A DNA stretch of 64,000 nt from contig CAWJKV010000016.1 of NCBI GenBank assembly GCA_963843555.1, positions 1 through 64,000 on the forward strand. Reading direction: 5' to 3'. The position numbers and the translations under genes were made by a program. Positions 4,467-54,370 of the stretch are shown here, one piece after another; position 1 is the stretch's first letter, and each line of letters starts with the position of its first letter. This DNA is from an uncultured Methanosarcinales archaeon. GTDB taxonomy: Archaea; Halobacteriota; Methanosarcinia; Methanotrichales; Methanotrichaceae. The notes under the pieces were generated by a model. The model ran no database searches. It saw only the letters and a program-made list of their open reading frames with translations, and was not told the origin of the DNA.

Positions 4467-4561
4467 ATCCGAGCCTGCCCGGCGTTGAGGGCGCCCAGTC
4501 ATGGCGCGGGAGGCCCGCAGGCCGACTCGCGGAACCCCAGAAGAATGTGCGAATGTTGTCC
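4467..4561 (+). repeat. GC-rich dispersed repeat family A, copy 1
   Basis: GCCCGGCGTTGAGGGCGCC...CGCGGGAGGCC-CGCA-GGCCGACTCGCGG..CCCCAGAAGA; recurs at about 9386, 16841 and 43105. Confidence 0.8.
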
Positions 4562-14695: not shown

Positions 14696-15160
14696 CTAAT
14701 TTAACAAATATATTGTGTTATCAGGAAGTTTAAATCGCTGCATGTTTTTATCAGAGGTAACCAGATAGTTCATATCGTAGGCGAGGGCATAGCCGATATG
14801 GACCAGATCCTGTGGTGTCATCCGCTCGTCTTTATATTTCGTATTTAATCTATAACATATTATGGCAACGGCTGGGTTAGGATGAAGGATGTTTAAGTTC
14901 AAACCGCCCCAGAAGGCAATCATATCATGGAGTTCTCTTATGTTATGAGATCGGCCCTCTCTTTCTCCTTCCAGGCACAAGGTAACGCTCTCTCCCAAAA
15001 CTGAAATTGGGACCGAAAGCTGGAACCTCCCTGCATGGCTACTCAAGTGCTGCAAATGATTCTTAATTTCGATAGGATTTATATTTCTCTTTTTAAGAAC
15101 CCTGTGATCTGAGGATATTGAAAAGAAGAAGATATCCGAATCAACGGCTATGCGAATCAT
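14696..15160 (-). CDS. PIN-domain (VapC-like) protein
   Basis: IAVDSDIF ... VLGE ... DLVHIGYA ... LVTSDK acidic tetrad pattern. Confidence 0.75.
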   Translation of the reverse strand: MIRIAVDSDIFFFSISSDHRVLKKRNINPIEIKNHLQHLSSHAGRFQLSVPISVLGESVTLCLEGEREGRSHNIRELHDMIAFWGGLNLNILHPNPAVAIICYRLNTKYKDERMTPQDLVHIGYALAYDMNYLVTSDKNMQRFKLPDNTIYLLN

Positions 15161-16840: not shown

Positions 16841-17185
16841 ACCAAGCCAGCCCGGCGTTGAGGGCGCCCCCCGACCGTAGCGCGGGAGGCCAGCAGGCCG
16901 ACTCGCGGCACCCCAGAAGAATTCGCTGATACTGTCCTTGTTTGCATCTGCAGAGTCCAATATGCAGTTTAATGACATTGGCATATTTTTCATTTAGACG
17001 CAAAATTTTGTCCACCTCTTCCGGGGTTCCGCGCGGTGTTACGCGCTGGGGTGACGGGGCCCACTCCAGGCCGTGGCGGCCCCCCTGACCCCGCGTCCGC
17101 GGGGGACAAATTACTGAAGCTTGCCCTTCATCCTTGAATGTGTTTGAGGAGGTACCTGGTGGAGTGCATATTCGCACAAACGGTC
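16841..17185 (+). repeat. Composite GC-rich element (family A plus family C), copy at island 1
   Basis: A at 16841-16937; C (GGGTTCCGCGCGGTG..ACGCGCTGGGGTGACGGGGCCCACTCCAGGCCGTGGCGGCCCCC.T.ACCCCGCGTCCGCGGGG) at about 17020-17105; both repeated at 43105-43400. Confidence 0.85.
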
Positions 17186-39293: not shown

Positions 39294-42189
39294 TAGATTT
39301 GGGTCCGCTCAAAATTCGGAGGGAGTTCAAATTGCTGGAAAGTTATTCTGCAAAGGAGATCGAGGCCAAGTGGCAGAAGACCTGGGAGGAGATAGCGGTC
39401 TTCCAGCCCGAGCCAGACGAGCGCCAGAAGTTCTTCTTAACCATACCTTACCCTTATCTCAATGGAAATTTGCATGCCGGCCATACGCGCACTTTCACCA
39501 TTGGCGATGCCGTGGCTCGCTACCGGCGCATGCGCGGAGAGAATGTTCTCTTTCCCATGGCTTTTCACGCCACGGGAACGCCAATCGTCGGTCTCTCCGA
39601 ACTCATCGCCCAAAAGGACCCACTCATCTGGGAAGTTTACACCAAGCTGCACGGCATTCCTGAGGAGGAGCTGTCCGAGCTCAACACGCCGGAGAAGATC
39701 GTGCTCTACTTCCGCCGCCAGGCCAAGGCGGCCATGCAGTGCATCGGCTACTCCATCGATTGGAGGCGGGAGTTCACCACCACCGATCCCGCTTACAGCA
39801 AGTTCATCGAGTGGCAGTACGGCATTCTGCGGCGTCTGGATTATGTGGTCAAGGGCAGCCATCCCGTGCGCTGGTGCCCGCATGACCGGAATCCGGTGGA
39901 GGATCACGACATTCTCAAGGGCGAGGATGCCACCATCATGGACTTTTCCCTGATCAAGTTCCGAATGGGCGATACCATCCTGCCCTGCGCCACTCTGCGG
40001 CCGGAGACGGTCTTTGGAGTGGTCAACCTCTGGCTCAACCCGGATGTGACTTATGTCCTGGCCAGAGTGAACGATGAGACCTGGGTCGTCTCCAAGGAGG
40101 CATACGAGAAGCTGACCTTCACCGACCGGCAAGTGGCCTTTGGATCGGAGATCTCCGGGAAGGAGCTGATCGGCAAGACGGTCACGAATCCGCTCACAGG
40201 CACTGAGGTTCTCATTCTGCCCGCCGCTTTCGTGGACCCGGACAACGGCTCGGGGATCGTCATGTCCGTTCCGGCTCATGCGCCTTACGATTATCTGGCG
40301 CTGAAGGATCTGTACGACAAAGATCTATCCGAGTATGGCATCACTGCGGACCTGCGCGAGATCAAGTTCATCTCTCTGATCGAGTCGCCCGGATATGGAG
40401 AGTTTCCGGCGGTGGAAGCTGTAAACGAGCTGAAGGTGATGGACCAGAACGATCCCAAGGCAGAGGAGGCCACCAAGATCGTCTACCGGCGCGAGTTTCA
40501 TAACGGCGTTCTCAAGGCCAACACCGGCCGCTACGCCGGAATGGCCGTCTCCAAGATCAAGGATGTCCTGCTGGCCGACCTGATTGAGAAGGGCATCGCC
40601 GAGATCTTCTACGAGTTCTCAGAGAAGCCTGTCATCTGCCGCTGCGGCACGAGATGCGTCATCATGCTGGTGCGGGACCAGTGGTTCCTGGAGTACTCCG
40701 ATACCGAGTGGAAGGCCAATGTGCTCCGCTGCCTGGCAGAGATGCGCATCATCCCGCCGGAGTTCCGGGTGGAGTTCGAGAACAAGATCGACTGGCTGAA
40801 GGACAAGGCCTGCGCCCGGCGGAAGGGTCTGGGCACTCATCTGCCCTGGGATAAGGAGTGGCTCATCGAGTCTCTGGGAGACAGCACCATCTACATGGCC
40901 TACTACATTCTGGCCAAGTACGTGAACGCGGGCATGAAGATCGACAATCTGCCGCCTGAGTTCTTCGAGTACATATTCATGAATAACGGAGACGCCTGCC
41001 GCTGTGGCGGCGCCAGACGGGCCTGCCGCAGCAGACGGTGCAGCAGATCCACGACGACTTCGCCTACTGGTATCCTGTAGACCTGCGCACCTCGGGCAAG
41101 GATCTCGTCGCAAATCACCTGCTCTTCTTCCTCTACCATCACGTGGCCATATTCCCAGAAAGGCTCTGGCCCAAAGCCATTGCCGTGAACGGATTCGTCT
41201 CTCTGGAGGGCCAGAAGATGTCCAAGTCCAAGGGGCCGTTGCTCACGCTGCGCCAGGCCGTGGCCGAGAACGGGGCGGATGTGACGCGGCTGTATATCCT
41301 GGGCAATGCCGAGGGAACGGCGGATGTGGACTGGAGAAACGACGGAGTCGAGTCCACTCACGCCCATATGGAGAGGTTCTACAATCTGGCCAGGGAGATT
41401 CTGGCAGACAACAGTATCGATGAGAAGGCGGAGAAGACGCTGATCGATCGCTGGATGCTCTCCCGGTTGCAGAGGCGCATCGCAGGAGGCCACGACTGCC
41501 ATGGAGAACATCCAGACGCGGCGGGCGCTGCAGAGTGCCTTCTACCTGCTCTTCAACGATCTGCGCTGGTATCAGCGGCGGGGAGGCAAGAACCAGCTGC
41601 GTGCGGTCCTCTCGGCCTGGGTGCGGATGATGTCGCCCTTCACGCCGCATGTCTGCGAGGAGCTGTGGGCGGCGGGGTTGGGCGAGGGCTATGCATCGCT
41701 GGCTGACTGGCCGGTCGCGGATGAGACGCTCATCGACGAGAAGGCAGAGAAGGCCGAGGACCTCCTGGAGCGCACTCTGAACGATGTGCAGGAGATCGTG
41801 AATGTCACCAAGGCCAAGCCCGGCAAGATCACGCTCTACACCACGCCTGCCTGGAAGCGGGAGATGCTGCGGCTCGCCGTTGAGGCGGCAGCGGGCGGCA
41901 AGCTGGACATGGGCGCGCTCATGAAGGAGGCCATGGCCTCGCCCGCTATTGCGGAGCACAAGAAGGATGCGCCCAAGTATGCCCAGAAGCTGGCCAAGGC
42001 GGCCCACTCGCTCTCCGCGGAGGCGCTGGGGCTGGACGAGTTCGAGACGCTTGACACGGGAGAAGGCTGTACCTGCAGGCGGCGCTGGGCGTGCCGGTGG
42101 AGGTCTACTCGGCGGACGAGGCGGGAGAGGACCCCAAGGGCAAGAGCAAGCAGGCGGAACCGGGGAGGCCGGCGATATATATTGAATAG
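39290..42189 (+). CDS. leuS: Leucine--tRNA ligase (3 apparent frameshifts)
   Basis: PYLNGNLHAGH, ATLRPET, ESLGDSTIY, SGKDLV.NHL, KMSKS, C-terminal PGRPAIYIE. Confidence 0.95.
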
Positions 42190-42238: not shown

Positions 42239-42541
42239 TTGAGGGCAATGAAGGGGGAAAAGCCATTCGCCTTGATTATCAGCAGAGGAGCCAACAAATC
42301 CCTGGATAAATTAGGAACAAGGACCGCGAAGAAGGTAATAGAAGCCCTGCGAGAGATTCAAAAGGATCCATTTAGGTCGCGATCAGGCGCTGACATAATG
42401 AAGATTAGAGGGAGAAAGGAACCACCGGCTTATAGACTGAAGTTTGGCCAGATACGAATTGAGTATGTCGTCTATGAGGAGGAGTCTTTGATCCAAGTGG
42501 TGCAGATCTTCAAGAGAAAGGGCGACTCCGATTACAGGTGA
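42239..42541 (+). CDS. RelE/ParE family toxin
   Basis: A.KSLDKL...DPF...DI.KIRG...YRLKFGQIRIEY. Confidence 0.85.
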   Translation: MRAMKGEKPFALIISRGANKSLDKLGTRTAKKVIEALREIQKDPFRSRSGADIMKIRGRKEPPAYRLKFGQIRIEYVVYEEESLIQVVQIFKRKGDSDYR

Positions 42542-42578
42542 AACCATAAATAGTAGCGGATTTAATTAGAGGTTAACG

Positions 42579-42755
42579 ATGAAAAGCGAATTGCTGCCTG
42601 CAAAAAATGAGCCTTTCACAGAGGAGGAACTTGCGGATCTGGAAGAAGGCGAGGAGTCGGAATGCTCCGATCCACTGTGGGAAAGCGCCAGGAAGCACAG
42701 GAAGGAAGCCATAAGCCTGGAGGAGTACTGCCGCAAGCGAGGAATTGATATCTAG
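42579..42755 (+). CDS. 58-aa acidic putative antitoxin
   Basis: MKSELLPAKNEPFTEEELADLEEGEE..AISLEEYCRKRGIDI, GAGGT RBS, adjacent to RelE. Confidence 0.65.
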   Translation: MKSELLPAKNEPFTEEELADLEEGEESECSDPLWESARKHRKEAISLEEYCRKRGIDI

Positions 42756-42779: not shown

Positions 42780-42978
42780 CTGGCCAAGGCGGATCTACTC
42801 ACCCTCTGCGGAGGCGCTGGGGCTGGACGAGTTCGAGACGCTTGTCGAGGGAGAAGGCTTACCTGGCGGCGGCCTGGGCGTGCCTGTGGAAGTCTTTTCG
42901 GCGGACGAGGCTGGGGAGGACCCCAAGGGCAAGAGCCGACAGGCGGAACCGGGGAGGCCGGCGATTTATATCGAGTGA
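42780..42978 (+). pseudogene. Duplicate of the last ~200 bp of leuS
   Basis: Near-identical to 41990-42189 (GAGGCGCTGGGGCTGGACGAGTTCGAGACGCTTG ... GGCGGAACCGGGGAGGCCGGCGAT). Confidence 0.92.
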
Positions 42979-43104
42979 AGCCTCCTGTTCCTTTTTTTCA
43001 ATGTAGATATCAAAGGAGTCCGCTTACGCACCTTTTCAATTGGTTTGCAGCTTGGCCGCCGTCGCTCGGCCGGGCCGCGACCATAAGCCTCGCCCCTCAC
43101 CACA

Positions 43105-43400
43105 GCGCTGGAGGGCCGCAGGCCGAACTCGCGGCACCCCAGAAGATGTGCGAACATTGTCCCGGCAAGCATCAGATAGATCCCATCTGCATTAAATGAC
43201 CTCTAATTTGTCGCAAAAAAATTATCCCACAACTTCTTCCCGGGTTCCGCGCGGTGAAACGCGCTGGGGTGACGGGGCCCACTCCAGGCCGTGGCGGCCC
43301 CCCTAACCCCGCGTCCGCGGGGAACAATCAATGAAGCTCTGCCCTTCAGGTTTGGACGTTTTTGAGAAGGTCCCAGGCAGAGTGCCCTATCCGAACGGCT
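43105..43400 (+). repeat. Composite GC-rich element (family A plus family C), copy at island 2
   Basis: Matches 16880-17185; C block 43241-43322 nearly identical. Confidence 0.85.
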
Positions 43401-44119: not shown

Positions 44120-47100
44120 ATGCTCATTGATATGTCACGTGTGATGAATTCCCTTAAGGATCTAAAGGATACTACTCTATGGAAAAAATTAGATACAGCT
44201 TCCAAAGAGAATGAAGATGCGGAGTTTTTGGCGACAAATTTGCCGAAAATTTGTGAAGGAGCTAGCGAGCGTATGAAAGAGATGCCGTCATTGCATGGCC
44301 AATACACTCTCCACGACGAGACACATCTCCTACGCGTTACGGAATTAATGGCAAATATAATACCTGAAAAGGTACTTGATAAATTGAATCCAATTGAAAT
44401 TGCTTTGCTTATCTTATCAGCATTTTTCCATGATCAAGGAATGGTCTTAAGCAAAGAAGAATTAGTGTCTATGAATTCCGAATCAAAATTTAAAATATTT
44501 CGCGACAATTGGTGCATAAATCATCCGAATATAAGAGAGATTCAGATAATATTGCAGGACAAATCCATGAGCCAACCTGAAAAGGATAGAATTAGGCATA
44601 TGGAAAGGGAATTGTTTGACGGATTATTGACGGACTATATTAGGCAAAGCCATGCTCGTAGATCCAGAGATTTTGTTGTATCAACTTGTCATGATGATAG
44701 CTTATGGAAAATCGCAGGAACAAGTCTTACTTCATACGTTGGAAAGCTTTGTGAATCTCATTCATTATCAGCAACTGATTTAATACCCGAAAAGGGTTTT
44801 AACTATGATGAATCAATCGGACAATATAATATTAATCTATCATACCTTGCACTTGTTTTGAGATTGGCTGATATTCTTGACTTTGATCGTGATAGAACTC
44901 CTGATTCGTTATATAAAACGATAAATTTCACAAATGACGTTAGTTTAACTGAGTGGGAAAAGCATCGATCTGTTGAAGGTTGGAATATTGATCAAAAGAG
45001 TATCAGGTTCTCATTGCTTTGCGAAAGGCCAGAATATCAGAAAGCAGCCCTAGATTTCATGGATTTAATCGATAATGAACTAAAAGCTGCGATAAATTTA
45101 ACAAAATCTTATCCAAAAAATTTTGAGATATACTACTTCGACCTTCCTACATCTGTTGATCGAAAGCGTATTGTTGCCAAAGATGATGCGTATATCTATC
45201 ATGATCTAGAGTTTTCATTATCTCGCAACGAAATTGTTAAACTATTATTAACTGATAAATTATATAATTCTCCTGCAATTTGTGTCCGTGAATTACTGCA
45301 AAATTCACTAGACGCCTTAAGATATAGGCGATCACTTAAAAAATTTGATGGATCTGAATGGGCTGACGGCAAAGTGATTTTGGAGCATTTTGTGGATGAA
45401 TATGGGCATGAAGTTCTTAGATGTACCGACAATGGTGCGGGCATGGATGAGGACATAATAGAGAGATTCTTAACCAGAGTGGGCAGAAGTTATTATAGGT
45501 CTCCTGAATTTGAACAAGAAAGAATTATATTTTCCCAAAAAGGTGCGGATTTTGATCCTTGTTCTCAATTCGGAATCGGCTTCATGTCCTGTTTTATGAT
45601 TGGTGATCGAATTATAATAAAAACGCGTCGTGATTATGGTCCAGAAAAGGGTTGGGGTGAGCCCCTTCAGGTCGAAATAAATGGGCTAGGAGGCATGGTT
45701 GTGATTCGAAAAGGCTCTCCGAATCAATCACCAGGAACGATTGTGGAAATAACTGGAAGGAAGAAACCAAGACTATTTGATGAGTACGTAGACAAGATAA
45801 ATTTAATTGATGTCGTCGATGCCTACGCATTGGCCTGCGAATTCCCAATAGAAGCCCATTGCCTGATTGATGAAATAGGGAATGACATTTCGATTCCTTG
45901 CACAATTGTAATCCCAAAAACGGAAATTGAAATAGCTGGAATTAAGAATCAATTGAGCTTTGAGCAAGAATTTTTTGAGATCGATTCTAATTTGAGGGGA
46001 TACGTTCGAGCTAGCTTCCTCCTAAATAATTTGGGCAAAATTGATTTAGCTAATTCTGAAGCACATTGGGATATAGGTAACTTTGGACCTTGTCTTGTGC
46101 TGTCAAATGGCTTAAAAATAAAAGAATCATCAAGAAAGGGCGCAATTTGTTTGGATGGAATTTATGTGTGTGGCAATCCAGAGTATCGCAGCGAAAGACA
46201 TTTCATGAACTTCACAATTTGGAGCAATAATTATATCCCTCTCGAAGGAGATTATTATTTACTGGATGTAAGGGGCATTCTCAAACCACCCTTAACCACT
46301 TCGAGGGATCCTCCAAGAGATCCTCCTGAAGGGTCTCGTTGGGATCGACTTGCATGTATGGCAAATCTAGCAAGAGCCAGATTATGGGAGAAGGTAGCTC
46401 AAACCATCGGAGATAGATTGGATATTGATACATTCTGGAAATTAGCTTTGATACATAGAGCCCCTATCCCATGGTTGCCCGCAAATACAGTATGGTCAAA
46501 ATTATCTGTTCCCATTGTCAAGAATAATGAATTTATAGAATGGAGAGAGGTCTCATCCCTAGGGAATTTATATGTGAGAAAAGATACATCATCAGAAAAA
46601 GCAATATGCAGAGGGTTGTATCAAATTTTTACTGAAAACGGCTTGGAAATCAAAGCTTCGAAGGATTTAGCCAAATGGGAACACAAAGTCCGAATTCGTT
46701 ATGGGTGCCTAAATGAACAATTATTCAATCTAATTATTAGCTTTTCCATAGTTAAAATACTGCAAGGAGATGCCTGCATTTATCTGTCTGAGCCGTTACT
46801 AAATGAATCTCTGATTGTATATCGCATCAACTCAGTATTTTTGCTGCAATATGCAGGTGAGCTGGCCGAAGTTTTCACGGTTCAATTACCTTTTAAAAAT
46901 GCTAACCGCAATCATGCACTCGTTCGAACCGCATTCGATGCTAATTATGTAGAACATCTATCCGATATTCAAACATTTGCTCGTTCTTTGGTCCGATTCC
47001 TTGGTGATACGGATAATTTGAAAGCTCTAATGGATCCTGATGCATATAGCCACCCTGGGATTAATCGATGGATGCGTCATCTCGGCTACCAATACAATTC

Positions 47101-47218
47101 GATAGATTGGGAAAATTATGCTCCAGATCTTTCTCCTCCCTACAAGATTTGGCTGGGAGACCGAGGCATCTTTGAAATAACACATGATCATTTCGAAGCA
47201 TGGGCGTCTCTAAAATAA
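44120..47218 (+). CDS. HD-domain plus Hsp90-like (GHKL) ATPase fusion, AT-rich
   Basis: TLHDETH, FFHDQGM, CESH, LRLADILD; VRELLQNSLDA, DNGAGM, GRSYY, SQFGIGFMSCF. Confidence 0.85.
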   Translation: MLIDMSRVMNSLKDLKDTTLWKKLDTASKENEDAEFLATNLPKICEGASERMKEMPSLHGQYTLHDETHLLRVTELMANIIPEKVLDKLNPIEIALLILSAFFHDQGMVLSKEELVSMNSESKFKIFRDNWCINHPNIREIQIILQDKSMSQPEKDRIRHMERELFDGLLTDYIRQSHARRSRDFVVSTCHDDSLWKIAGTSLTSYVGKLCESHSLSATDLIPEKGFNYDESIGQYNINLSYLALVLRLADILDFDRDRTPDSLYKTINFTNDVSLTEWEKHRSVEGWNIDQKSIRFSLLCERPEYQKAALDFMDLIDNELKAAINLTKSYPKNFEIYYFDLPTSVDRKRIVAKDDAYIYHDLEFSLSRNEIVKLLLTDKLYNSPAICVRELLQNSLDALRYRRSLKKFDGSEWADGKVILEHFVDEYGHEVLRCTDNGAGMDEDIIERFLTRVGRSYYRSPEFEQERIIFSQKGADFDPCSQFGIGFMSCFMIGDRIIIKTRRDYGPEKGWGEPLQVEINGLGGMVVIRKGSPNQSPGTIVEITGRKKPRLFDEYVDKINLIDVVDAYALACEFPIEAHCLIDEIGNDISIPCTIVIPKTEIEIAGIKNQLSFEQEFFEIDSNLRGYVRASFLLNNLGKIDLANSEAHWDIGNFGPCLVLSNGLKIKESSRKGAICLDGIYVCGNPEYRSERHFMNFTIWSNNYIPLEGDYYLLDVRGILKPPLTTSRDPPRDPPEGSRWDRLACMANLARARLWEKVAQTIGDRLDIDTFWKLALIHRAPIPWLPANTVWSKLSVPIVKNNEFIEWREVSSLGNLYVRKDTSSEKAICRGLYQIFTENGLEIKASKDLAKWEHKVRIRYGCLNEQLFNLIISFSIVKILQGDACIYLSEPLLNESLIVYRINSVFLLQYAGELAEVFTVQLPFKNANRNHALVRTAFDANYVEHLSDIQTFARSLVRFLGDTDNLKALMDPDAYSHPGINRWMRHLGYQYNSIDWENYAPDLSPPYKIWLGDRGIFEITHDHFEAWASLK

Positions 47219-47445
47219 TATCAAATTTTATTTGGCATATCTTACCTTCTACTCCCAGAATGTGCGAATATTTGTGGCGCGGGCAGTCGTCCCGACTCCA
47301 GATGAGCATGATACGCCACGACTGCGTCCTCCTGCGGCCTCGGCCCAAAGGCAGCCATCCCTGCCAAGCGCCATCGGTGATATGCTCCCCGCGCGTATGC
47401 CCGTCCATACATGCACGCGGCCCGCCTGATTGCCCATCGACATGA

Positions 47446-47557
47446 GCCCGGACGACCCGGACCACAGGCGTCAGCAACGAGCGCAGCCCGGGGCAACGGC
47501 CGCAACCACTGTCGATGGCTGCCTGGGAGACTAACCATGCTCGCTGGATCGCAAAAC
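47446..47557 (+). repeat. Cassette-spacer repeat family B, copy 1
   Basis: GCCCGGAC..CCCGGACCACAGGCG..ACGAGCGCAGCCCGGGGCAACGGCCGCAACC..GTCGATGGCTGCC..GGATCGCAAAA. Confidence 0.85.
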
Positions 47558-47624
47558 TGGAGAATGCTTATGAATTGTCTCCAAAAAAATCTCAGCACAT
47601 CTGGATCACAAGATTTCATTTTGC

Positions 47625-47972
47625 CTATTTTGCAACCTGAGATCGGACAAATTCCATGAATTGACGCAAGCTTATGCCGGGATTATCATCCATATAGCTC
47701 TCCTCAACTGCATCCTGAGAACCGTTATGAAAGTGCTTGGGATAAGTCGATACACTCTGCCAGTTTGAATCTGGAAAATTGTCGTGACGTTACATGGAGC
47801 CATCGATGTGTCTTCTCTCCCAATGATAGGAAAACCGACCTGAGATTTTTAAGGAGAATCATATATCGATAAATGAGCCATCATCCACAAATGCTCTGAG
47901 CTTGCCGCGAGAAATGATGGAATCAGTCGAAATATCTGCATATTCTGTATCGATGATTCTCTTCAGCATCAT
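47625..47972 (-). pseudogene. DUF6516 (TumE-like) toxin, copy 1, interrupted
   Basis: KLRAF.DDGSFIDI*FS..FSYHWERR..HDNFP..TYPKHFH; TGA at 47859-47861 plus a frameshift. Confidence 0.7.
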
Positions 47973-47980
47973 TAGATCTG

Positions 47981-48265
47981 CTACTGTTGAGGAAGGTTCT
48001 TCATCGCGGCTAATAGCTCATCTCTTCTGGATTCCAGGTAGTCGAGCTCCTGAAAATCGTCCAGAGCATCCTCCCCCCTAACTTCTCCCTTTTTCAGCTT
48101 ATCATCCAGCTCAAATATGGATCTCACACCATGCTTTGTCCTGATCTCGAATACCTCTGCTTCAATGCATCTCAGTTCTTTCTCCAAGAAGGCCTTGATG
48201 CTAGCCCGAGCAAGAACGTCACGATCCATCTTCAGGGCACTTGCAACCTCATCGATAACTTCCAT
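47981..48265 (-). CDS. Antitoxin partner of DUF6516, copy 1
   Basis: MEVIDEVA..FLEKEL..KHGVRSIFELD..DFQELDYLE. Confidence 0.75.
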   Translation of the reverse strand: MEVIDEVASALKMDRDVLARASIKAFLEKELRCIEAEVFEIRTKHGVRSIFELDDKLKKGEVRGEDALDDFQELDYLESRRDELLAAMKNLPQQ

Positions 48266-48380
48266 GATCGAATACCATCCAATAAGACTGTCATTAAGAT
48301 ATTTCAATCCTACCGTTTCTAAAATATGCGTGTATAGAGAAGGATGCCAGATTCCTACTCTCTGAAAGAGATGAACAATT

Positions 48381-48495
48381 GGCCTCCAGCGCGCCCGAGC
48401 ACGAGCGCCTTCCAGGCAAGCCAGTCCGCCCAAATGACATCGCAGCAAGCCCGGACGTTCCCGGACCACAGGCGGCGGCCACGAGCGCAGCCGGG
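48381..48495 (+). repeat. Repeat family B, copy 2 (3'-truncated)
   Basis: AAGCCCGGACGTTCCCGGACCACAGGCGGCGGCCACGAGCGCAGCC. Confidence 0.85.
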
Positions 48496-48582
48496 CCGGA
48501 GGCAAGGCAAGTGGAGGTTCGGTGTTTCTGTAACAGAAAAGATTTATTGATAGGACGACAAATAGTCAAATGAAGGCTGTCC

Positions 48583-48867
48583 ATGAGTTACGAAAAAATC
48601 ACTTACCGCCTTCATGCGGTTCAGAGGATGTTCGAGCGCAAGATCAGTGCAGAAGAGGTTCGGTACGTGCTGGAGACGGGAGAGGCGATTGAAGAATATC
48701 CTGACGATACTCCATACCCAAGTTGCCTGATCCTTGGAAGCTACAAAGGTCGCCTCATCCATGTAGTAGCGGCAAATAATTTAATCGACGAGGAGAAGAT
48801 CGTAATCACAGTCTACGAGCCAGATCCTTCTGAATGGGACCCGGATTGTAGGGAGAGGATTTCATGA
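48583..48867 (+). CDS. DUF4258 family toxin
   Basis: HAVQRMFERKI..GEAIEEYPDD.PYPSCLILG..IHVV..ITVYEPD..W. Confidence 0.88.
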   Translation: MSYEKITYRLHAVQRMFERKISAEEVRYVLETGEAIEEYPDDTPYPSCLILGSYKGRLIHVVAANNLIDEEKIVITVYEPDPSEWDPDCRERIS

Positions 48868-49091
48868 AATGCGTTATTTGCAGAAAAGCATCTACGAAGC
48901 CCGGCACAACAACAGTTACTTTTGAGCGTGGTTGCCTGACAATGGTGGTGAAATGCGTGCCCGCTCAAGTTTGCCCCAATTGTGGCGAAGCATACATAAG
49001 CGAGTTGGTTACGGCCGAGTTGCTCGATGATGCAGAAGAGCGAGCCAAGACTGGTGCCCAAGTGGAAATTCGACAATATGTGGCGGCCTGA
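48864..49091 (+). CDS. YgiT-type zinc-finger (MqsA-like) antitoxin
   Basis: MKCVIC..VPAQVCPNCGE; ATGA overlap with the toxin gene. Confidence 0.88.
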   Translation: MKCVICRKASTKPGTTTVTFERGCLTMVVKCVPAQVCPNCGEAYISELVTAELLDDAEERAKTGAQVEIRQYVAA

Positions 49092-49139
49092 TTTACTTTT
49101 ATCGGACGGGCTGCCTGACGGCCCAATTGGTAACCGCCC

Positions 49140-49299
49140 ACCTCATGGCAAGCTCCTGCGCGTGTATGTGCCAACCTTACGTGCATGGGTCCGCGCGCAG
49201 ACCGACTTCACAGAAGCCCGGACAGCCCGGCCTCAGGCGACAGGCCACGAGTGCAGCCGCACCACCAACGGTCGATGGGCTGCCTGGCGCTGCTGCCAG
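49140..49299 (+). repeat. Repeat family B, copy 3
   Basis: AAGCCCGGAC..GGCCACGAGTGCAGCCGCACCACCAACGGTCGATGGGCTGCCTGGCGCTGCTGCCAG. Confidence 0.85.
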
Positions 49300-49342
49300 T
49301 AATCGACAAGTATTGCTCAGTCGGAGATTCTTCTGAATGATT

Positions 49343-49786
49343 TTATTCCCGCCCATCAGTCCTTGAGGCGTTTTCCAACCATTTTTCAGGGCTTATCGCT
49401 AGCACTGATTTCGGACAGCGCTCTAACATCTCTTCATCCCACGAAATCAAAACGGCATCAAAATCCAGAGCAACAGCTGCATAAACAGCATCTGCACCAC
49501 GAAGGCGATTTTCAATAGCAATCTCTGCCGCACGAAGAGCGAGAGTCAGATCCAGAGGAACCTGTGTCATTCCAGGAAAATGCTTTATGAGATTGACCAG
49601 CCTCCCGGATAAAAGCGAGTCTCCGGTCGGCCTGGCAATAGCGGCCCCACACTCGGCAAGCACAAGAGTAGGGCAGAATATTTTTGCTCCTTTTACGCTA
49701 TGCAGGAAACGGTAGCTCCGAGGATATTGTTTTTCAGAAGGTCGGGCTGCAGATACAAAGACGCTGGCATCAATTGTCAGGTTCAT
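49343..49786 (-). CDS. VapC/PIN toxin
   Basis: TIDASVF, VLAE, LRGADAVYAA, LISWD. Confidence 0.9.
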   Translation of the reverse strand: MNLTIDASVFVSAARPSEKQYPRSYRFLHSVKGAKIFCPTLVLAECGAAIARPTGDSLLSGRLVNLIKHFPGMTQVPLDLTLALRAAEIAIENRLRGADAVYAAVALDFDAVLISWDEEMLERCPKSVLAISPEKWLENASRTDGRE

Positions 49787-50040
49787 CTCCTCATCTCGGC
49801 AAGAATCTCCAAAGCGCTCTTCTTGCTCTTCCATGCCGAATCGATTTCATGGGCCAAAGCCAGCCACTCTGCATCCCAGTCAATTTCCTTTACCACATCC
49901 TCAGAGGATCTTAGTGGAACCAGTACAGCCATGGGTCTGCCCTCTGGGCCGATCAGAGTAGCTGTCTCACCTGGAGATAGTTTCGCTAGAATATCTTCAA
50001 GATTCTTTTTGGCCGAGTCTACAGAAACCTCTACCGACAT
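49783..50040 (-). CDS. Phd/YefM-like antitoxin
   Basis: AKKNLEDIL..GE...L....GRPMAVLVP; ATGA overlap with the toxin gene. Confidence 0.8.
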   Translation of the reverse strand: MSVEVSVDSAKKNLEDILAKLSPGETATLIGPEGRPMAVLVPLRSSEDVVKEIDWDAEWLALAHEIDSAWKSKKSALEILAEMRR

Positions 50041-50190
50041 GATTGACTCCTTCGTAATAATAATTTCATTTTCTTTGATTTATGTACAGCATGCTATTAA
50101 AAGTTAACCAAAAGCAAATCATCGTAGTCTGAGATCAATTGCATCGAAAGTCGCCAGGCCAAAACGGACTCCCCCTGCTCTAGCACCTGT

Positions 50191-50324
50191 CAGGCAATCC
50201 AGCCCGCCGTGACGACTGTGCCGCTGGCCCGGCCCATAGGCGGTGGCCACGAGCGCAGCCGCACCACCAACGGTCGATGGGCTGCCCGACGCTGCTGCCA
50301 GCGGCCCGCAAGGATCGCAAAAGC
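50191..50324 (+). repeat. Repeat family B, copy 4
   Basis: GGCGGTGGCCACGAGCGCAGCCGCACCACCAACGGTCGATGGGCTGCCC..GCTGCTGCCAGCGGCCCGCAAGGATCGCAAAA. Confidence 0.85.
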
Positions 50325-50514
50325 TGTAGCTTGCAACAGATCGCTCTGCTAAAAAGTCTCTGTGAGTCCTCTGTGCGCTCTGTGTCTTTGTGGTGAAATT
50401 GTTAGTTGTTAAGTCATAATTATCGGCTAATATTAATAACAAACCAAATGCATTGCTTTACCAATCCTGCACCAGGATAACTGCTTTTTCAGTAGCAAGC
50501 ACCACCTGGCCTCA

Positions 50515-50580
50515 GGCCCGACCGGCCTCCTGCCCGCCCGGACAGCAGCACAGCAAGCCAGGACGCCCCGGCCAACGGTT
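50515..50580 (+). repeat. Repeat family B, copy 5 (partial)
   Basis: CCCGACCGGCCT..GCCCGCCCGGA..CAGCAAGCCAGGACGCCCCGGCCAACGGT. Confidence 0.55.
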
Positions 50581-50632
50581 GGGGACAGAAAACCAGGACA
50601 CTCTTGCGGGAACTGTCGACAGGCATTATTGT

Positions 50633-51139
50633 TCAATCCTCATTCTCGCTCGAAGTATGCAATGCCTTTTTGTATATTTCTTCGCCTATCCAGAAACCAG
50701 CGTCATTTCTCAACCTGTCGAGCTCCTCTTTGAGCGATGCTATTCTTCCCTCTCGCTTGGCCCTAATCAAGATACCTATCACGCCGGATATGTTCAATCC
50801 ATACACTCCAGCCGTCTTTCTCGCCTCGCTTTCGTCCAAAAATACAACATCCGGATTCAGCTCGACTGCCAGAGCTATAGTCTCAGATTCGCCTTCATGT
50901 AGATCCCTTTGTAGAAAACAGATAAGAGGGCGATTTGCAGGTGCAACGACATCTATCCTTCCCAATTGTCGTCCCTCTTCTACCTCAGAGGAGCCGGGCC
51001 ATTTCCGGCCTTCCTGAACTACCTCTCTCCAAACAGCCGGTGCTATGAGAATCTTTTTATGAAACTCGAAGAGAAGATACAAGCGTCCAATCTTTGCCAG
51101 ATGTATTAGCGTTGAAGAATCACTGATTGCACCCGGCAT
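50633..51139 (-). CDS. DUF3368 PIN-family toxin
   Basis: ISDSSTLIHLAKIG, VWRE, LHEGESETIALA, FLDE..AR, G.IGILIRAK. Confidence 0.9.
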   Translation of the reverse strand: MPGAISDSSTLIHLAKIGRLYLLFEFHKKILIAPAVWREVVQEGRKWPGSSEVEEGRQLGRIDVVAPANRPLICFLQRDLHEGESETIALAVELNPDVVFLDESEARKTAGVYGLNISGVIGILIRAKREGRIASLKEELDRLRNDAGFWIGEEIYKKALHTSSENED

Positions 51140-51389
51140 ATTTTAAATCCTCTTCTAGCTCAGCTTCTCCATAGTGACGGTTAACCTTACGCTGGCCAAG
51201 AAGATCTTCGAACTGCAGACGCGTAAGGCCACTTAGGGCAGAGGCTTTTCCAGAGGATAGCATTCCTCGCTGGTAAAGCGCCAGAGCTAATTCTTTATAG
51301 AGTTCTGCTTCCACATCATCAGGTGGGACCCTAAGAGCATTTATTATCTCTTCAGGGATCTTTAAGGTTCGAGCGCTCATTTGATTCAT
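51120..51389 (-). CDS. UPF0175 family antitoxin
   Basis: ELALALYQRGMLSSGKASALSGL. Confidence 0.9.
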   Translation of the reverse strand: MNQMSARTLKIPEEIINALRVPPDDVEAELYKELALALYQRGMLSSGKASALSGLTRLQFEDLLGQRKVNRHYGEAELEEDLKYAGCNQ

Positions 51390-51486
51390 GCTCCATTTCC
51401 ATAATAATAGCAGAGATTATTAATTAAGCTTTGGCAGCAGAAGAGAATTCCGAGTTTTTAGAAGCTCTTGTGATATCTTATGAGCA

Positions 51487-51671
51487 ACCCGACCGGCCTT
51501 CTGCTCTCTCACGAGCGCTCATCAGGCAATCCAGCCGCCCAGACGACAACGCCGCAAGCCCAGACACTCGGACCACATGCGGCGGCCACGAGCACAGCCC
51601 GGGGCAACGGCCGCAACCAACGGTCGATGGCTGCCTGGCGAGACTAACCCATGCTCGCTGGATCGCAAAAC
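51487..51671 (+). repeat. Repeat family B, copy 6
   Basis: GCGGCGGCCACGAGCACAGCCCGGGGCAACGGCCGCAACCAACGGTCGATGGCTGCC..GGATCGCAAAA. Confidence 0.85.
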
Positions 51672-51738
51672 TGGAGAATGCTTATGAATTGTCTCCAAAA
51701 AAATCTCAGCGCATCTGGATCAACATGATTTCATTTGC

Positions 51739-52087
51739 CTATTTGGCAAGCTGAGATCGGACAAATTCCATGAAATGAACGTAAGCTTATGTCCGGATTA
51801 TCATCCATATAGCTCTCCTCAACTGCATCCTGAGAACCGCTATGGAAGTGCTTGGGATAAGTCGATACACTCTGCCAGTTTGAATCTGGAAAATTGTCGT
51901 GACGGTACATGGAGCCATCGATGTGTCTTCTCTCTCAATGATAGGAAAACCGACCTGAGATTTTTAAGGAGAACCATATATCGATAAATGAGCCATCATC
52001 CACAAATGCTCTGAGCTTGCCGCGAGAAATGATGGAATCAGTCGAAATATCTGCATATTCTGTATCGATGATTCTCTTCAGCATCAT
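51739..52087 (-). pseudogene. DUF6516 (TumE-like) toxin, copy 2, interrupted
   Basis: FIDIWFS..FSYH*ERRHIDGSMYRHDNFP..TYPKHFH; TGA at 51935-51937. Confidence 0.7.
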
Positions 52088-52098
52088 TAGATCTGCTA

Positions 52099-52380
52099 CT
52101 ATTGAGGAAGGTTCTTCATCGCAGCTAATAGCTCATCTCTCCTTGATTCCAGGTAGTCGAGCTCCTGAAAATCGTCCAGAACATCCTCCTCCCTAACTTC
52201 TCCCTTTTTCAGCTTATCATCCAGCTCAAATATGGATCTCACACCATGCTTTGTCCTGATCTCGAATATCTCTGCTTCAATGCATCTCAGTTCTTTCTCC
52301 AAGAAGGCCTTGATGCTAGCCCGAGCAAGAACGTCACGATCCATCTTCAGGGCACTTGCAACCTCATCGATAACTTCCAT
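52099..52380 (-). CDS. Antitoxin partner of DUF6516, copy 2
   Basis: Near-identical to 47981..48265. Confidence 0.75.
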   Translation of the reverse strand: MEVIDEVASALKMDRDVLARASIKAFLEKELRCIEAEIFEIRTKHGVRSIFELDDKLKKGEVREEDVLDDFQELDYLESRRDELLAAMKNLPQ

Positions 52381-52495
52381 GATCGAATACCATCCAATAA
52401 GACTGTCATTAAGATATTTCAATCCTACCGTTTCTAAAATATGCGTGTATAGAGACGGATGCCAGATTCCTACCCTCTGAAAGAGATGGACATTT

Positions 52496-52678
52496 GGCCT
52501 CCAGCGTGCCCGAGTACGAGCGCCTGCCAGGCAAGCCAGTCCGCCCAAATGACATCGCAGGAAGCCCGGACGGCCCTGCCCGAGGCGGCGGCCACGAGCG
52601 CAGCCCGGGCAACGGCCCAACCAAGGCCAGCGGCTGCCCCGGCGCTGCTGCGCCAGCGGGCCGCAAGGATCGCAAAAC
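52496..52678 (+). repeat. Repeat family B, copy 7
   Basis: AAGCCCGGAC..GGCGGCGGCCACGAGCGCAGCCCGGGCAACGGCC..GGCTGCCCCGGCGCTGCTG..CCGCAAGGATCGCAAAA. Confidence 0.85.
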
Positions 52679-52715
52679 ATTTGATTTGGCAAAATCGAAA
52701 TATATCATCCAACTT

Positions 52716-52931
52716 TTACACGCTTACCTCTACAGAAGCCGCCGTGGTAGTTGGTTCAGGTATGCTTAGAGACGCTTCCTTTAGCCCTTCCAGGTGGAAC
52801 TCTATTGCCTCTTTCATCAACTCTAGCGTCTCCTTTCTAGTTGGACCGGTTGCTATGACACCTGGCAAATCCGGACAATAGGCGGCGTAATTATTTTCAG
52901 CTTTTTCAATAATGATCAGATACTCAGTCAT
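52716..52931 (-). CDS. hicB: HicB family antitoxin
   Basis: YAAYCPDLPGVIATG.T..E....MKEAIEFHLE. Confidence 0.9.
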   Translation of the reverse strand: MTEYLIIIEKAENNYAAYCPDLPGVIATGPTRKETLELMKEAIEFHLEGLKEASLSIPEPTTTAASVEVSV

Positions 52932-53142
52932 CTTTTCCGACCTCCTTGATACCGCTTTGTCTTAAAATGCTATTCAAGGTACCCTTTGGTACTTCATCAT
53001 CCAAATTCCCTGAGATGGTCACCAATCCACTCTTGAAATGATGCTTGTACTGTCTGTGACTGCCTCTGGTTCTATCAAGGAACCATCCATCCTCTTCTAC
53101 TAGCTTGATGACGGCTCGGACTTTCAAATTGTTAGCCCTCAT
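52924..53142 (-). CDS. hicA: HicA family toxin
   Basis: DGW...RTRGSHRQYKH..GLVTI...KGTLNSILRQSG. Confidence 0.92.
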   Translation of the reverse strand: MRANNLKVRAVIKLVEEDGWFLDRTRGSHRQYKHHFKSGLVTISGNLDDEVPKGTLNSILRQSGIKEVGKDD

Positions 53143-53249
53143 TGAGATATTTAACCAATCATAATAGCCTCTCTAGACATATAATTGATTTGCCGCGTGG
53201 CAAATCCTGGCGCCCTCGATCTATTGGCAGCCCACGTCCGCGCCGCGTT

Positions 53250-53446
53250 ACCTTCGATGGCATGCTCCCGCGCATGGGTACCCGCTCGTGCGCACACGCG
53301 AGCCCGCCCGGATGGCAGCGCAGCAAGCCCGGCTGGCCAGGCCCGCTGGACTGCGGCGGCCACGAGCGCAGCCCGGGGCAACGGCCGCAATCGCAGTCGA
53401 TGGGCTGCCCGGTGCTGCTGCCAGGAGCCCGCAAGGATCGCAAAGC
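53250..53446 (+). repeat. Repeat family B, copy 8
   Basis: GCGGCGGCCACGAGCGCAGCCCGGGGCAACGGCCGCAA..GTCGATGGGCTGCCCGGTGCTGCTGCCAG..CCCGCAAGGATCGCAAA. Confidence 0.85.
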
Positions 53447-53673
53447 CGGAGGCCCCTTGATTGCTCCAAGGAGTCTCAAGTCTCTGCCTCTGTGTTCGGC
53501 CTGTGTTAATTGATATAATTATCTGACAATAATACTAAATCATAATCTCTTTCCAAAATCCGGTCTGCTGAATTGCCTCCCACCAGAGGCTTTCGTCACC
53601 TGGCCCCAGTCCCGACCGAGGAATTGCGAGCTAAAAGCTATATCCCATCACTGACAATAACTTCAAAGCGGCA

Positions 53674-53904
53674 ATGGATAAAGCGGTCTATGAGATCATT
53701 GACGATCCAGAGCCCTTTTATGGCGAGATACCGGAGCTTCAGGGTGTCTGGGCTTCAGGAAAGACATTGGAGGCCTGCCGTGACACCCTCATGAGCGCCC
53801 AGGAAGACTGGATTGCCTTCCGCCTTAGAACGGGACGGTCCATTCCGCCGATAGGTGGAGCTTCAATCGCAGTTTCATTGGAGCCGGTGAGCGTTGTTGA
53901 ATAA
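53674..53904 (+). CDS. HicB family antitoxin (N-terminus eroded; partner hicA truncated after about 7 codons)
   Basis: FYGEIPELQGVWASGKTLEACR..EDWI; overlapping TTG AAT AAG CTC ACT CCT GTC. Confidence 0.75.
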   Translation: MDKAVYEIIDDPEPFYGEIPELQGVWASGKTLEACRDTLMSAQEDWIAFRLRTGRSIPPIGGASIAVSLEPVSVVE

Positions 53905-53919
53905 GCTCACTCCTGTCTT

Positions 53920-54370
53920 AGTAAAAACCTTTTGATTTTTCTCTACCTCAATAGTACGAGCAGCATAGCTGTTCTCTTTAAAAAAACCAGAGAATAAACT
54001 GTTGCCCGGAACACTCCAGTATCTTCGGCAAGTACTATAGACGGTGATACTTGATTCAATCCGTGCTGGCTAAGATCGTGGCCGACGACCGGAAATCCTG
54101 CCGCCGACACCGCATTGCCCAGAAAGACTATGGCTCGTTGCTCGGCATATTTTCCTTTAGCTTCATCCGCCCCTCAGGCAGCTCTGGATCAGTCCTCCGG
54201 AAATAGCTCACTGCTGCCAGCACAGCAATGATGAGAACCACCCAGTTGAGCCATCCCTGCCAGTAATGAAGTGTACCCGCCCAGAGCATAGACAATAACA
54301 GGAATTATAAGGGCCGCCTGGCCGAACCTGATTATCACAAGCTTCCTCAGCGCATTCAGCCTCTGCTGCT
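53920..54370 (-). pseudogene. Remnant of an isoprenylcysteine carboxylmethyltransferase-family membrane protein
   Basis: Broken frames give AGTLHYWQGW, YFRRTDPEL..RMKLKE and FKENSYAARTIEVEK. Confidence 0.55.

Follow-up and report, generated by a model that had tools for sequence, protein, structure and literature searches.

What holds an array of unrelated toxin–antitoxin (TA) pairs together on an archaeal chromosome, and how do its members change places? The question is raised by a stretch of 64,000 nt (the window; contig CAWJKV010000016.1 of GenBank assembly GCA_963843555.1, positions 1–64,000) from an uncultured Methanosarcinales archaeon of the family Methanotrichaceae, in which same-strand copies of a GC-rich repeat separate successive TA pairs. 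The window belongs to contig C16 of a 2.68-Mb assembly that is 82% complete. A first, sequence-only reading took the array for a platform that shuffles cassettes through a structured, non-attC recombination site, with the recombinase acting in trans. Here, we show using repeat profiles, comparison of arrays between genomes, folding analysis, and searches for recombinases that the TA pairs are repeat-bracketed cassettes of fixed polarity with inherited junctions, that they are reordered between genomes and in one case duplicated singly, and that the array has no integron parts. The feature is genuine, genus-wide and shuffled. We class it as modular shuffling by way of linkers, here located on an archaeal chromosome and involving TA and defence genes; it resembles integrons in layout only.

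Repeats and cassettes of the array

Seven copies of the repeat were used to build a profile, which gives seven strong matches in the window at 105–144 bits, all on the plus strand, and a partial one at 50528–50580 (10.8 bits, E 0.36), in agreement with the earlier count of about eight same-strand copies. Between 47373 and 53561 these copies separate six TA pairs. The proposed rule of one TA module per interval holds for these six pairs, but after the last copy there is a lone UPF0150/HicB-like gene; of the decayed HicB/HicA module seen there by the sequence-only reading, the HicB-like gene is present, whereas a tblastn search with two HicA homologues found no match to HicA, of which the first few codons remain. 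The interval between copies 4 and 5, described as empty, is in fact the rest of one repeat unit running head-to-tail into the next. One cassette has been duplicated within the window together with its half-repeats: 51557–52608 is 95% identical to 47445–48495, a tract that covers the cassette and half of each flanking repeat and does not include the neighbours. The pairs at first labelled DUF6516 (cassettes 1 and 5) match an intact relative that is named TumE (PF20126) by Pfam, and both TumE-like toxins of the window contain in-frame stops. As leuS (39329–42186) lies in four segments that differ in frame, and other core genes are fragmented too, the assembly probably contains indel errors, and indel-based decay calls are therefore not trusted.

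The GC-rich repeat is itself a piece of a larger unit of about 415 nt, which we obtained by iterating the repeat search over this genome and its relatives. The unit comprises the GC-rich block, a three-fold nonamer block, an AT-rich motif, and an end block; units are often arranged head-to-tail, as in copies 4 and 5 of the window, and single stand-alone units occur in some relatives. The AT-rich motif is the best-conserved stretch and could be a TATA-type promoter. A window copy of the repeat is matched in 16 of 24 same-genus genomes and in none of 13 genomes of a sister family. Of 59 genus genomes, 47 match the full unit, some of them perhaps through the nonamer part only. An exact 21-nt motif was found in 63 overlapping loci, 61 of them titled Methanothrix or Methanotrichaceae. 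The Rfam search of the repeat gave one chance match and nothing relevant. Plasmid and phage collections held no match to the repeat and pattern searches of IMG/VR returned 0, 0, and 1 matches, the one lacking the unit, so that no viral or plasmid vehicle was found.

Is the repeat scattered over the genome regardless of its neighbours, as an ordinary dispersed element would be? The GC-rich block is not: outside the window the profile search finds it on contig C11 (three hits with E at most 0.005 and a weak one) and on C2 (one hit), and in this genome it amounts to the window array, a second array on C11, and two fragments on C2. The C11 array follows a gene of 1098 aa and has RelE-like, nucleotidyltransferase/HepT, AF2212/PIN, and another two-gene cassette. 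The nonamer arm alone, in contrast, is dispersed through the genome as inverted pairs of about 110 nt, mostly between housekeeping genes, and the same inverted-pair pattern is also found in some bacteria. This arm is a dispersed element like repetitive extragenic palindromes (REP), so part of the unit is ordinary. Across the phylum the nonamer pattern is patchy (6 of 151 genomes); G092 and G101, from another family of the phylum, have 87 and 10 copies. Further TA-rich arrays of this genome, at C9:77900–84900 and C6:98400–101400, are bounded by nonamer inverted pairs and another linker; their contents include duplicates of 173-aa acylphosphatase-like genes and of an antitoxin/PIN pair.

Polarity, order and junctions across genomes

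The loci fetched from relatives yielded 293 inter-repeat segments, or 177 cassettes of 41 types once duplicates were removed; a few clusters join composite segments, which makes the cassette counts approximate. The genomes compared are different species, not strains (leuS 83–85% identical). Modules face both ways along the DNA, as first described, but relative to the repeat each type is fixed: none of 576 same-type pairs is reversed. The positions at which the repeat breaks off before a cassette and resumes after it are mostly characteristic of the cassette type across genomes, and no shared motif at the cassette/repeat junctions was apparent by eye.

Cassette order, on the other hand, varies between genomes. 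The 107 adjacencies hold 95 distinct type pairs, and 31 of the 45 type pairs that co-occur in at least two of 46 arrays have one order in some arrays and the reverse order in others; five of these 31 are pairs among the window cassettes. None of the window's five cassette adjacencies recurs in 32 other arrays. One could suppose a single long ancestral array of fixed order from which each lineage lost different cassettes, and the identity of window cassettes to those of relatives (76–90%, near that of leuS) does indicate a pool resident in the genus. Unless they stem from clustering errors, the pairs found in both orders nonetheless exclude fixed order with loss only, and one window cassette type is present at both leuS- and ilvC-anchored arrays; we regard this explanation as very unlikely. 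Further arrays lie at ilvC, nifH/amt, and uvrC.

Some cassettes have no Pfam match, namely a 96/173-aa pair in eight arrays and genes of 370, 167, and 131 aa (sites L026:9310–10061, L023:10571–11680, L033:5617–6120, and L306:8090–8485). They are candidates for putative new TA or defence genes. A homologue of the 167-aa L033 cassette gene is located at 14723–15160 of the window, with no repeat near.

Linkers, enzymes and landing sites

Could the array be a canonical integron array that lacks its integrase (cluster of attC sites lacking integron-integrases, CALIN)? Layout and TA cargo would fit, and the supplement of the archaeal integron survey lists one Methanotrichaceae genome with two attCs and no IntI (PMC9668308). 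As already noted from the letters, attC ends are absent: the strict geometry (RYYYAAC … GTTRRRY) occurs in none of the seven window intervals and in one of 337 copies, with 14 under a relaxed definition. There is no hairpin signal either, with folding z of −0.31 to −1.01 for both strands of two copies, a consensus fold of 20 copies with two pairs on the plus strand, and a minus-strand consensus that 11 of 60 column shuffles match, hence no conserved structure. The models for IntI (TIGR02249) and for the REP-associated tyrosine transposase RAYT (NF047646) were over cut-off in none of 59 genomes, 30 of which are at least 90% complete. Given also a unit of about 415 nt that is truncated at cassette-specific points, the array is not an integron, and a CALIN is the least credible of the explanations that we weighed. 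The description as a shuffled non-attC cassette array without integrase remains accurate.

What, then, moves the cassettes? From shuffling seen across species we infer that the repeats serve as homology linkers for a recombination-driven cassette exchange, beside a swappable defence slot after leuS, and we hold this explanation to be rather probable. Each TA pair would have turned into a cassette a single time, when it landed among tandemly arranged units; cassettes keep their own truncated repeat ends and orientation. Such first capture was probably a rare illegitimate event, as the cassette-specific junction positions without a common motif suggest. Any two repeat copies might then cross over, whereby a cassette would be looped out, inserted at another copy, duplicated, or swapped with the DNA of a relative. 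The general recombination machinery of the RadA type (RadA is present in this genome) could carry out these crossovers with no dedicated recombinase, and the same crossovers may swap the large defence genes that lie after the leuS 3′ end and before the first repeat. TA pairs are addictive, which probably slows the loss of deletion-prone arrays.

The places where shared flanks end bear on this proposal. Spanning pairs of cassettes with at least 96% identity numbered 44; of their 88 flanks 49 could be used, and the near-identical tracts of these end at unit positions 20–335, a median of 40 nt out from the cassette; a second method placed 32 ends from 27 pairs at positions 39–399. One cassette pair stays about 99% identical over 232 nt and then drops abruptly within the repeat. 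Among the joints listed for assembled contigs of four environmental runs, derived from relatives 90–99% alike, seven both start and finish in or at a repeat (e.g., 48456–49234, 49278–51629, and 53266 back to 48426), but the joint sides of 30–65 nt make them weak, and no proof of excision, circles, or transcription.

Several observations weigh against homology linkers. Aligned locally, the window copies of the repeat are 68–94% alike and share exact matches of 8–59 nt; exact matches of this length are short for efficient homologous recombination, and turnover may therefore be slow or protein-assisted. The flank-end analysis dropped 39 of 88 flanks, its right-hand ends concentrate at positions 20–88, and 13 of the 49 ends fall at positions 52–88. 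Flank ends in general could partly reflect rapid non-coding decay instead of crossovers. Unit positions 110–190 are retained in 104–105 of 111 intervals, as expected of a real site. No excised circles and no same-strain rearrangement were seen in the assembled contigs and different species at hand, and the arrays hold a minority of the genome's TA-like loci (of 55, 10 lie no more than 500 nt from the GC block).

Part of these data would suit a dedicated recombinase or nuclease, encoded elsewhere, that acts on a short site in the GC-rich core (about positions 60–190) as a new integron-like system. The retained core, the cluster of ends at positions 52–88, the strict polarity, the conservation of the unit across the genus, and the well-conserved AT-rich motif all speak in its favour. 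Yet the repeat lacks a conserved fold and flank ends scatter over positions 20–335. The AT-rich motif was rejected as the crossover site, being present in 60 of the 111 intervals and with none of the 49 ends at positions 350–440. Nor is there a linked enzyme: when 146 overlapping loci that bear the repeat (1.27 Mb) were searched with five mobility proteins, the matches were two insertion sequence (IS) 110 fragments and one IS200-type TnpA, with no tyrosine recombinase or GxxExxY nuclease, and none of 25 loci with tyrosine-recombinase genes has the GC block beside them. This genome's three tyrosine recombinase matches look broken. The GxxExxY nuclease was rejected as the mover, as it occurs in 6 of 25 genomes, this one not included, and at none of the 146 loci; the IS200-type Y1 transposases were rejected because the GC block adjoins 2 of 30 of their loci. 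IS110 was likewise rejected, since its copies in this genome are more than 115 kb from any repeat or on a repeat-free contig. The structured site with a recombinase in trans proposed by the sequence-only reading thus finds neither conserved fold, common end point, IntI, RAYT, nor linked tyrosine recombinase. We consider such a trans-acting enzyme unlikely, and give the same low credence to the broader idea that Methanothrix-like archaea possess a dedicated non-integron cassette system, in which a nuclease or recombinase would capture and reorder TA pairs, and entire defence systems too, at several places on the chromosome. The recombination is probably not site-specific.

Alternatively, the unit may be a decayed non-autonomous mobile element or a mosaic like REP or bacterial interspersed mosaic elements (BIME), a harmless landing zone in which TA pairs accumulate and differences in order arise from independent arrivals by other mobile elements. 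The nonamer inverted pairs between housekeeping genes, here and in bacteria, and the single stand-alone units are in line with this, as are an IS110 inside the nonamer block at one locus and nonamer-like flanks in two more of five IS110 relatives; TA clustering at permissive spots is also reported for Photorhabdus (PMC13617665). However, cassettes that had arrived independently would not agree in orientation and junction position per cassette type across genomes, and near-identical cassettes carry their repeat flanks to new neighbours. We therefore find a landing zone improbable, and retain homology linkers as the explanation of choice.

As to the mobile genes themselves, nonamer arms adjoin the gene at all 12 GxxExxY (PF13366) loci of the 25 genus genomes (L106–L117), in most cases on either side, and TA pairs or glycosyltransferase fragments are often nearby. 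The inserted IS110 (L227:840–2147; L227/L372) sits within the nonamer block of a unit; two IS110 relatives (L374 and L376) have nonamer-like flanks and two others do not, giving nonamer-like targets in up to three of five loci. We read IS110 as a parasite of the repeat.

The leuS slot and known systems

The features of the island are collected in Table 1. Its left anchor, leuS, is common to 11 loci fetched from relatives, and what follows leuS differs from locus to locus. Instead of the HD-CE gene of the window, these loci contain SIR2-STAND, Gabija-like (three loci), STAND, a CBASS-type cyclase with TGT and QueC, HD-CE/TPR, SIR2, an ATPase pair, or a PDC-S31 match, with no such gene seen in one locus; in all, nine different defence-type contents occur across 12 leuS-slot loci. 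The HD-CE gene has depth 0 in the four environmental runs, which contain pieces of cassettes. The RelE pair is bracketed by two leuS-end copies here and in L035, where the module is 82% identical. Extra leuS 3′-end copies of 75–197 nt follow leuS in several relatives (L025, L027, L035, L304, and L306), bracketing a RelE pair or nonamer arm, and could be scars left where integration took place at the end of the gene. Another, unrelated repeat of about 350 nt at 43041–43400 (also 16865–17167 and 4504–4561) occurs about 28 times in the genome, chiefly next to housekeeping genes, has very high depth in environmental contigs, and looks like an ordinary element of the miniature inverted-repeat transposable type.

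Table 1. Coordinates of the leuS slot, repeat copies, and cassettes in the window
Feature	Position	Strand	Remarks
leuS 3′ end, conserved left anchor of the island	41990..42185	+	leuS match to relative
RelE/ParE toxin (42239–42541) and 58-aa partner (42579–42755)	42239..42755	+	Pfam ParE_toxin
Second copy of leuS 3′ end	42780..42974	+	88% identical over 197 nt
HD-CE and HSP90-like ATPase gene of 1032 aa in the variable defence slot that immediately precedes the array	44120..47218	+	Pfam HD-CE, E 1.8e-55
Repeat copy 1	47373..47600	+	unit positions 88–332
Cassette 1: TumE-like toxin with in-frame stops (47616–47981), partner (47981–48265)	47616..48265	−	
Repeat copy 2	48346..48508	+	unit positions 39–227
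Cassette 2: DUF4258 toxin-like gene and YgiT-type zinc finger	48583..49091	+	Pfam, NCBIfam
Repeat copy 3	49115..49339	+	unit positions 60–309
Cassette 3: Phd/YefM-like antitoxin and PIN (VapC) toxin	49343..50040	−	Pfam; Phd below curated cut-off
Repeat copies 4 and 5, head-to-tail, with nonamer block and AT-rich motif	50152..50582	+	unit positions 60–415, then 2–190; refined bounds 50152–50454 (copy 4) and 50451–50582 (copy 5)
Cassette 4: UPF0175 and DUF3368	50633..51389	−	Pfam
Repeat copy 6	51488..51714	+	unit positions 67–332
Cassette 5: second TumE-like pair, one in-frame stop in toxin	51731..52380	−	
Repeat copy 7	52494..52688	+	unit positions 72–301
Cassette 6: HicA and HicB	52716..53142	−	Pfam
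Repeat copy 8	53250..53561	+	unit positions 85–430
Short start of a further unit after copy 8	about 53550–53625		read directly from the sequence
Remnant cassette: UPF0150/HicB-like gene (53674–53904) and first codons of lost HicA	53674..53920	+	

How does the array relate to systems that are already known? Extragenic repeats of the REP, REPIN (REP doublet forming hairpins), and BIME types are associated with RAYT. The nonamer arm is similar in its dispersed inverted pairs, its alternating runs, and its use as an IS110 target, but no RAYT was over cut-off in the 59 genomes, and the arrays' marker, the GC-rich block, is not dispersed. In defence hotspots and minimal mobile elements, variable systems are flanked by conserved genes; the slot after the core gene leuS likewise holds different defence systems in relatives, whereas its right boundary is a repeat that continues into the TA array and not a second core gene. 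The pdif modules moved by XerC/D also carry TA pairs between repeated sites, and differ in that no short site with fixed spacer, the AT-rich motif included, is found in every interval here.

Integrons and CALINs, including archaeal ones, come closest in layout, with one- or two-gene cassettes between same-strand repeats, rich in TA and defence genes and reordered between genomes (10.1101/2022.02.06.479319; PMC9668308). The arrays described here lack attC geometry, hairpin, IntI, attI, and a single crossover point, and their repeat ends are cassette-specific; the main text of that survey does not mention the genus (PMC9668308). In T4-type phages, exchange and mini-circles at promoter early stem-loops (PeSL) are attributed to recombination between the repeats with no dedicated recombinase, and the authors compare this shuffling with integrons (PMC2839356). 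The exchange proposed here would operate in a similar way; as in the window array, accessory genes lie between direct repeats and are exchanged between relatives. The PeSL is a phage promoter plus stem-loop for which circles were demonstrated, unlike here; the present unit is about 415 nt long, has no conserved fold, belongs to an archaeal chromosome, and links TA and defence genes. The Discussion of 2010 saw no evidence of such plasticity in cellular organisms (PMC2839356), and the accessible Photorhabdus text makes no mention of repeat linkers (PMC13617665). We found no description of these arrays in the full-text literature, where coverage of subscription papers is thin, so that this absence is no proof.

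In conclusion, the arrays would give an abundant group of methanogens a chromosomal equivalent of integrons that has no integrase and that attC-based searches miss. The repeat marks candidate new TA and defence genes, as several cassettes and slot genes are without a Pfam match. Exchange through repeat linkers would offer a concrete, testable route for the clustering and turnover of TA pairs and defence systems in archaea.

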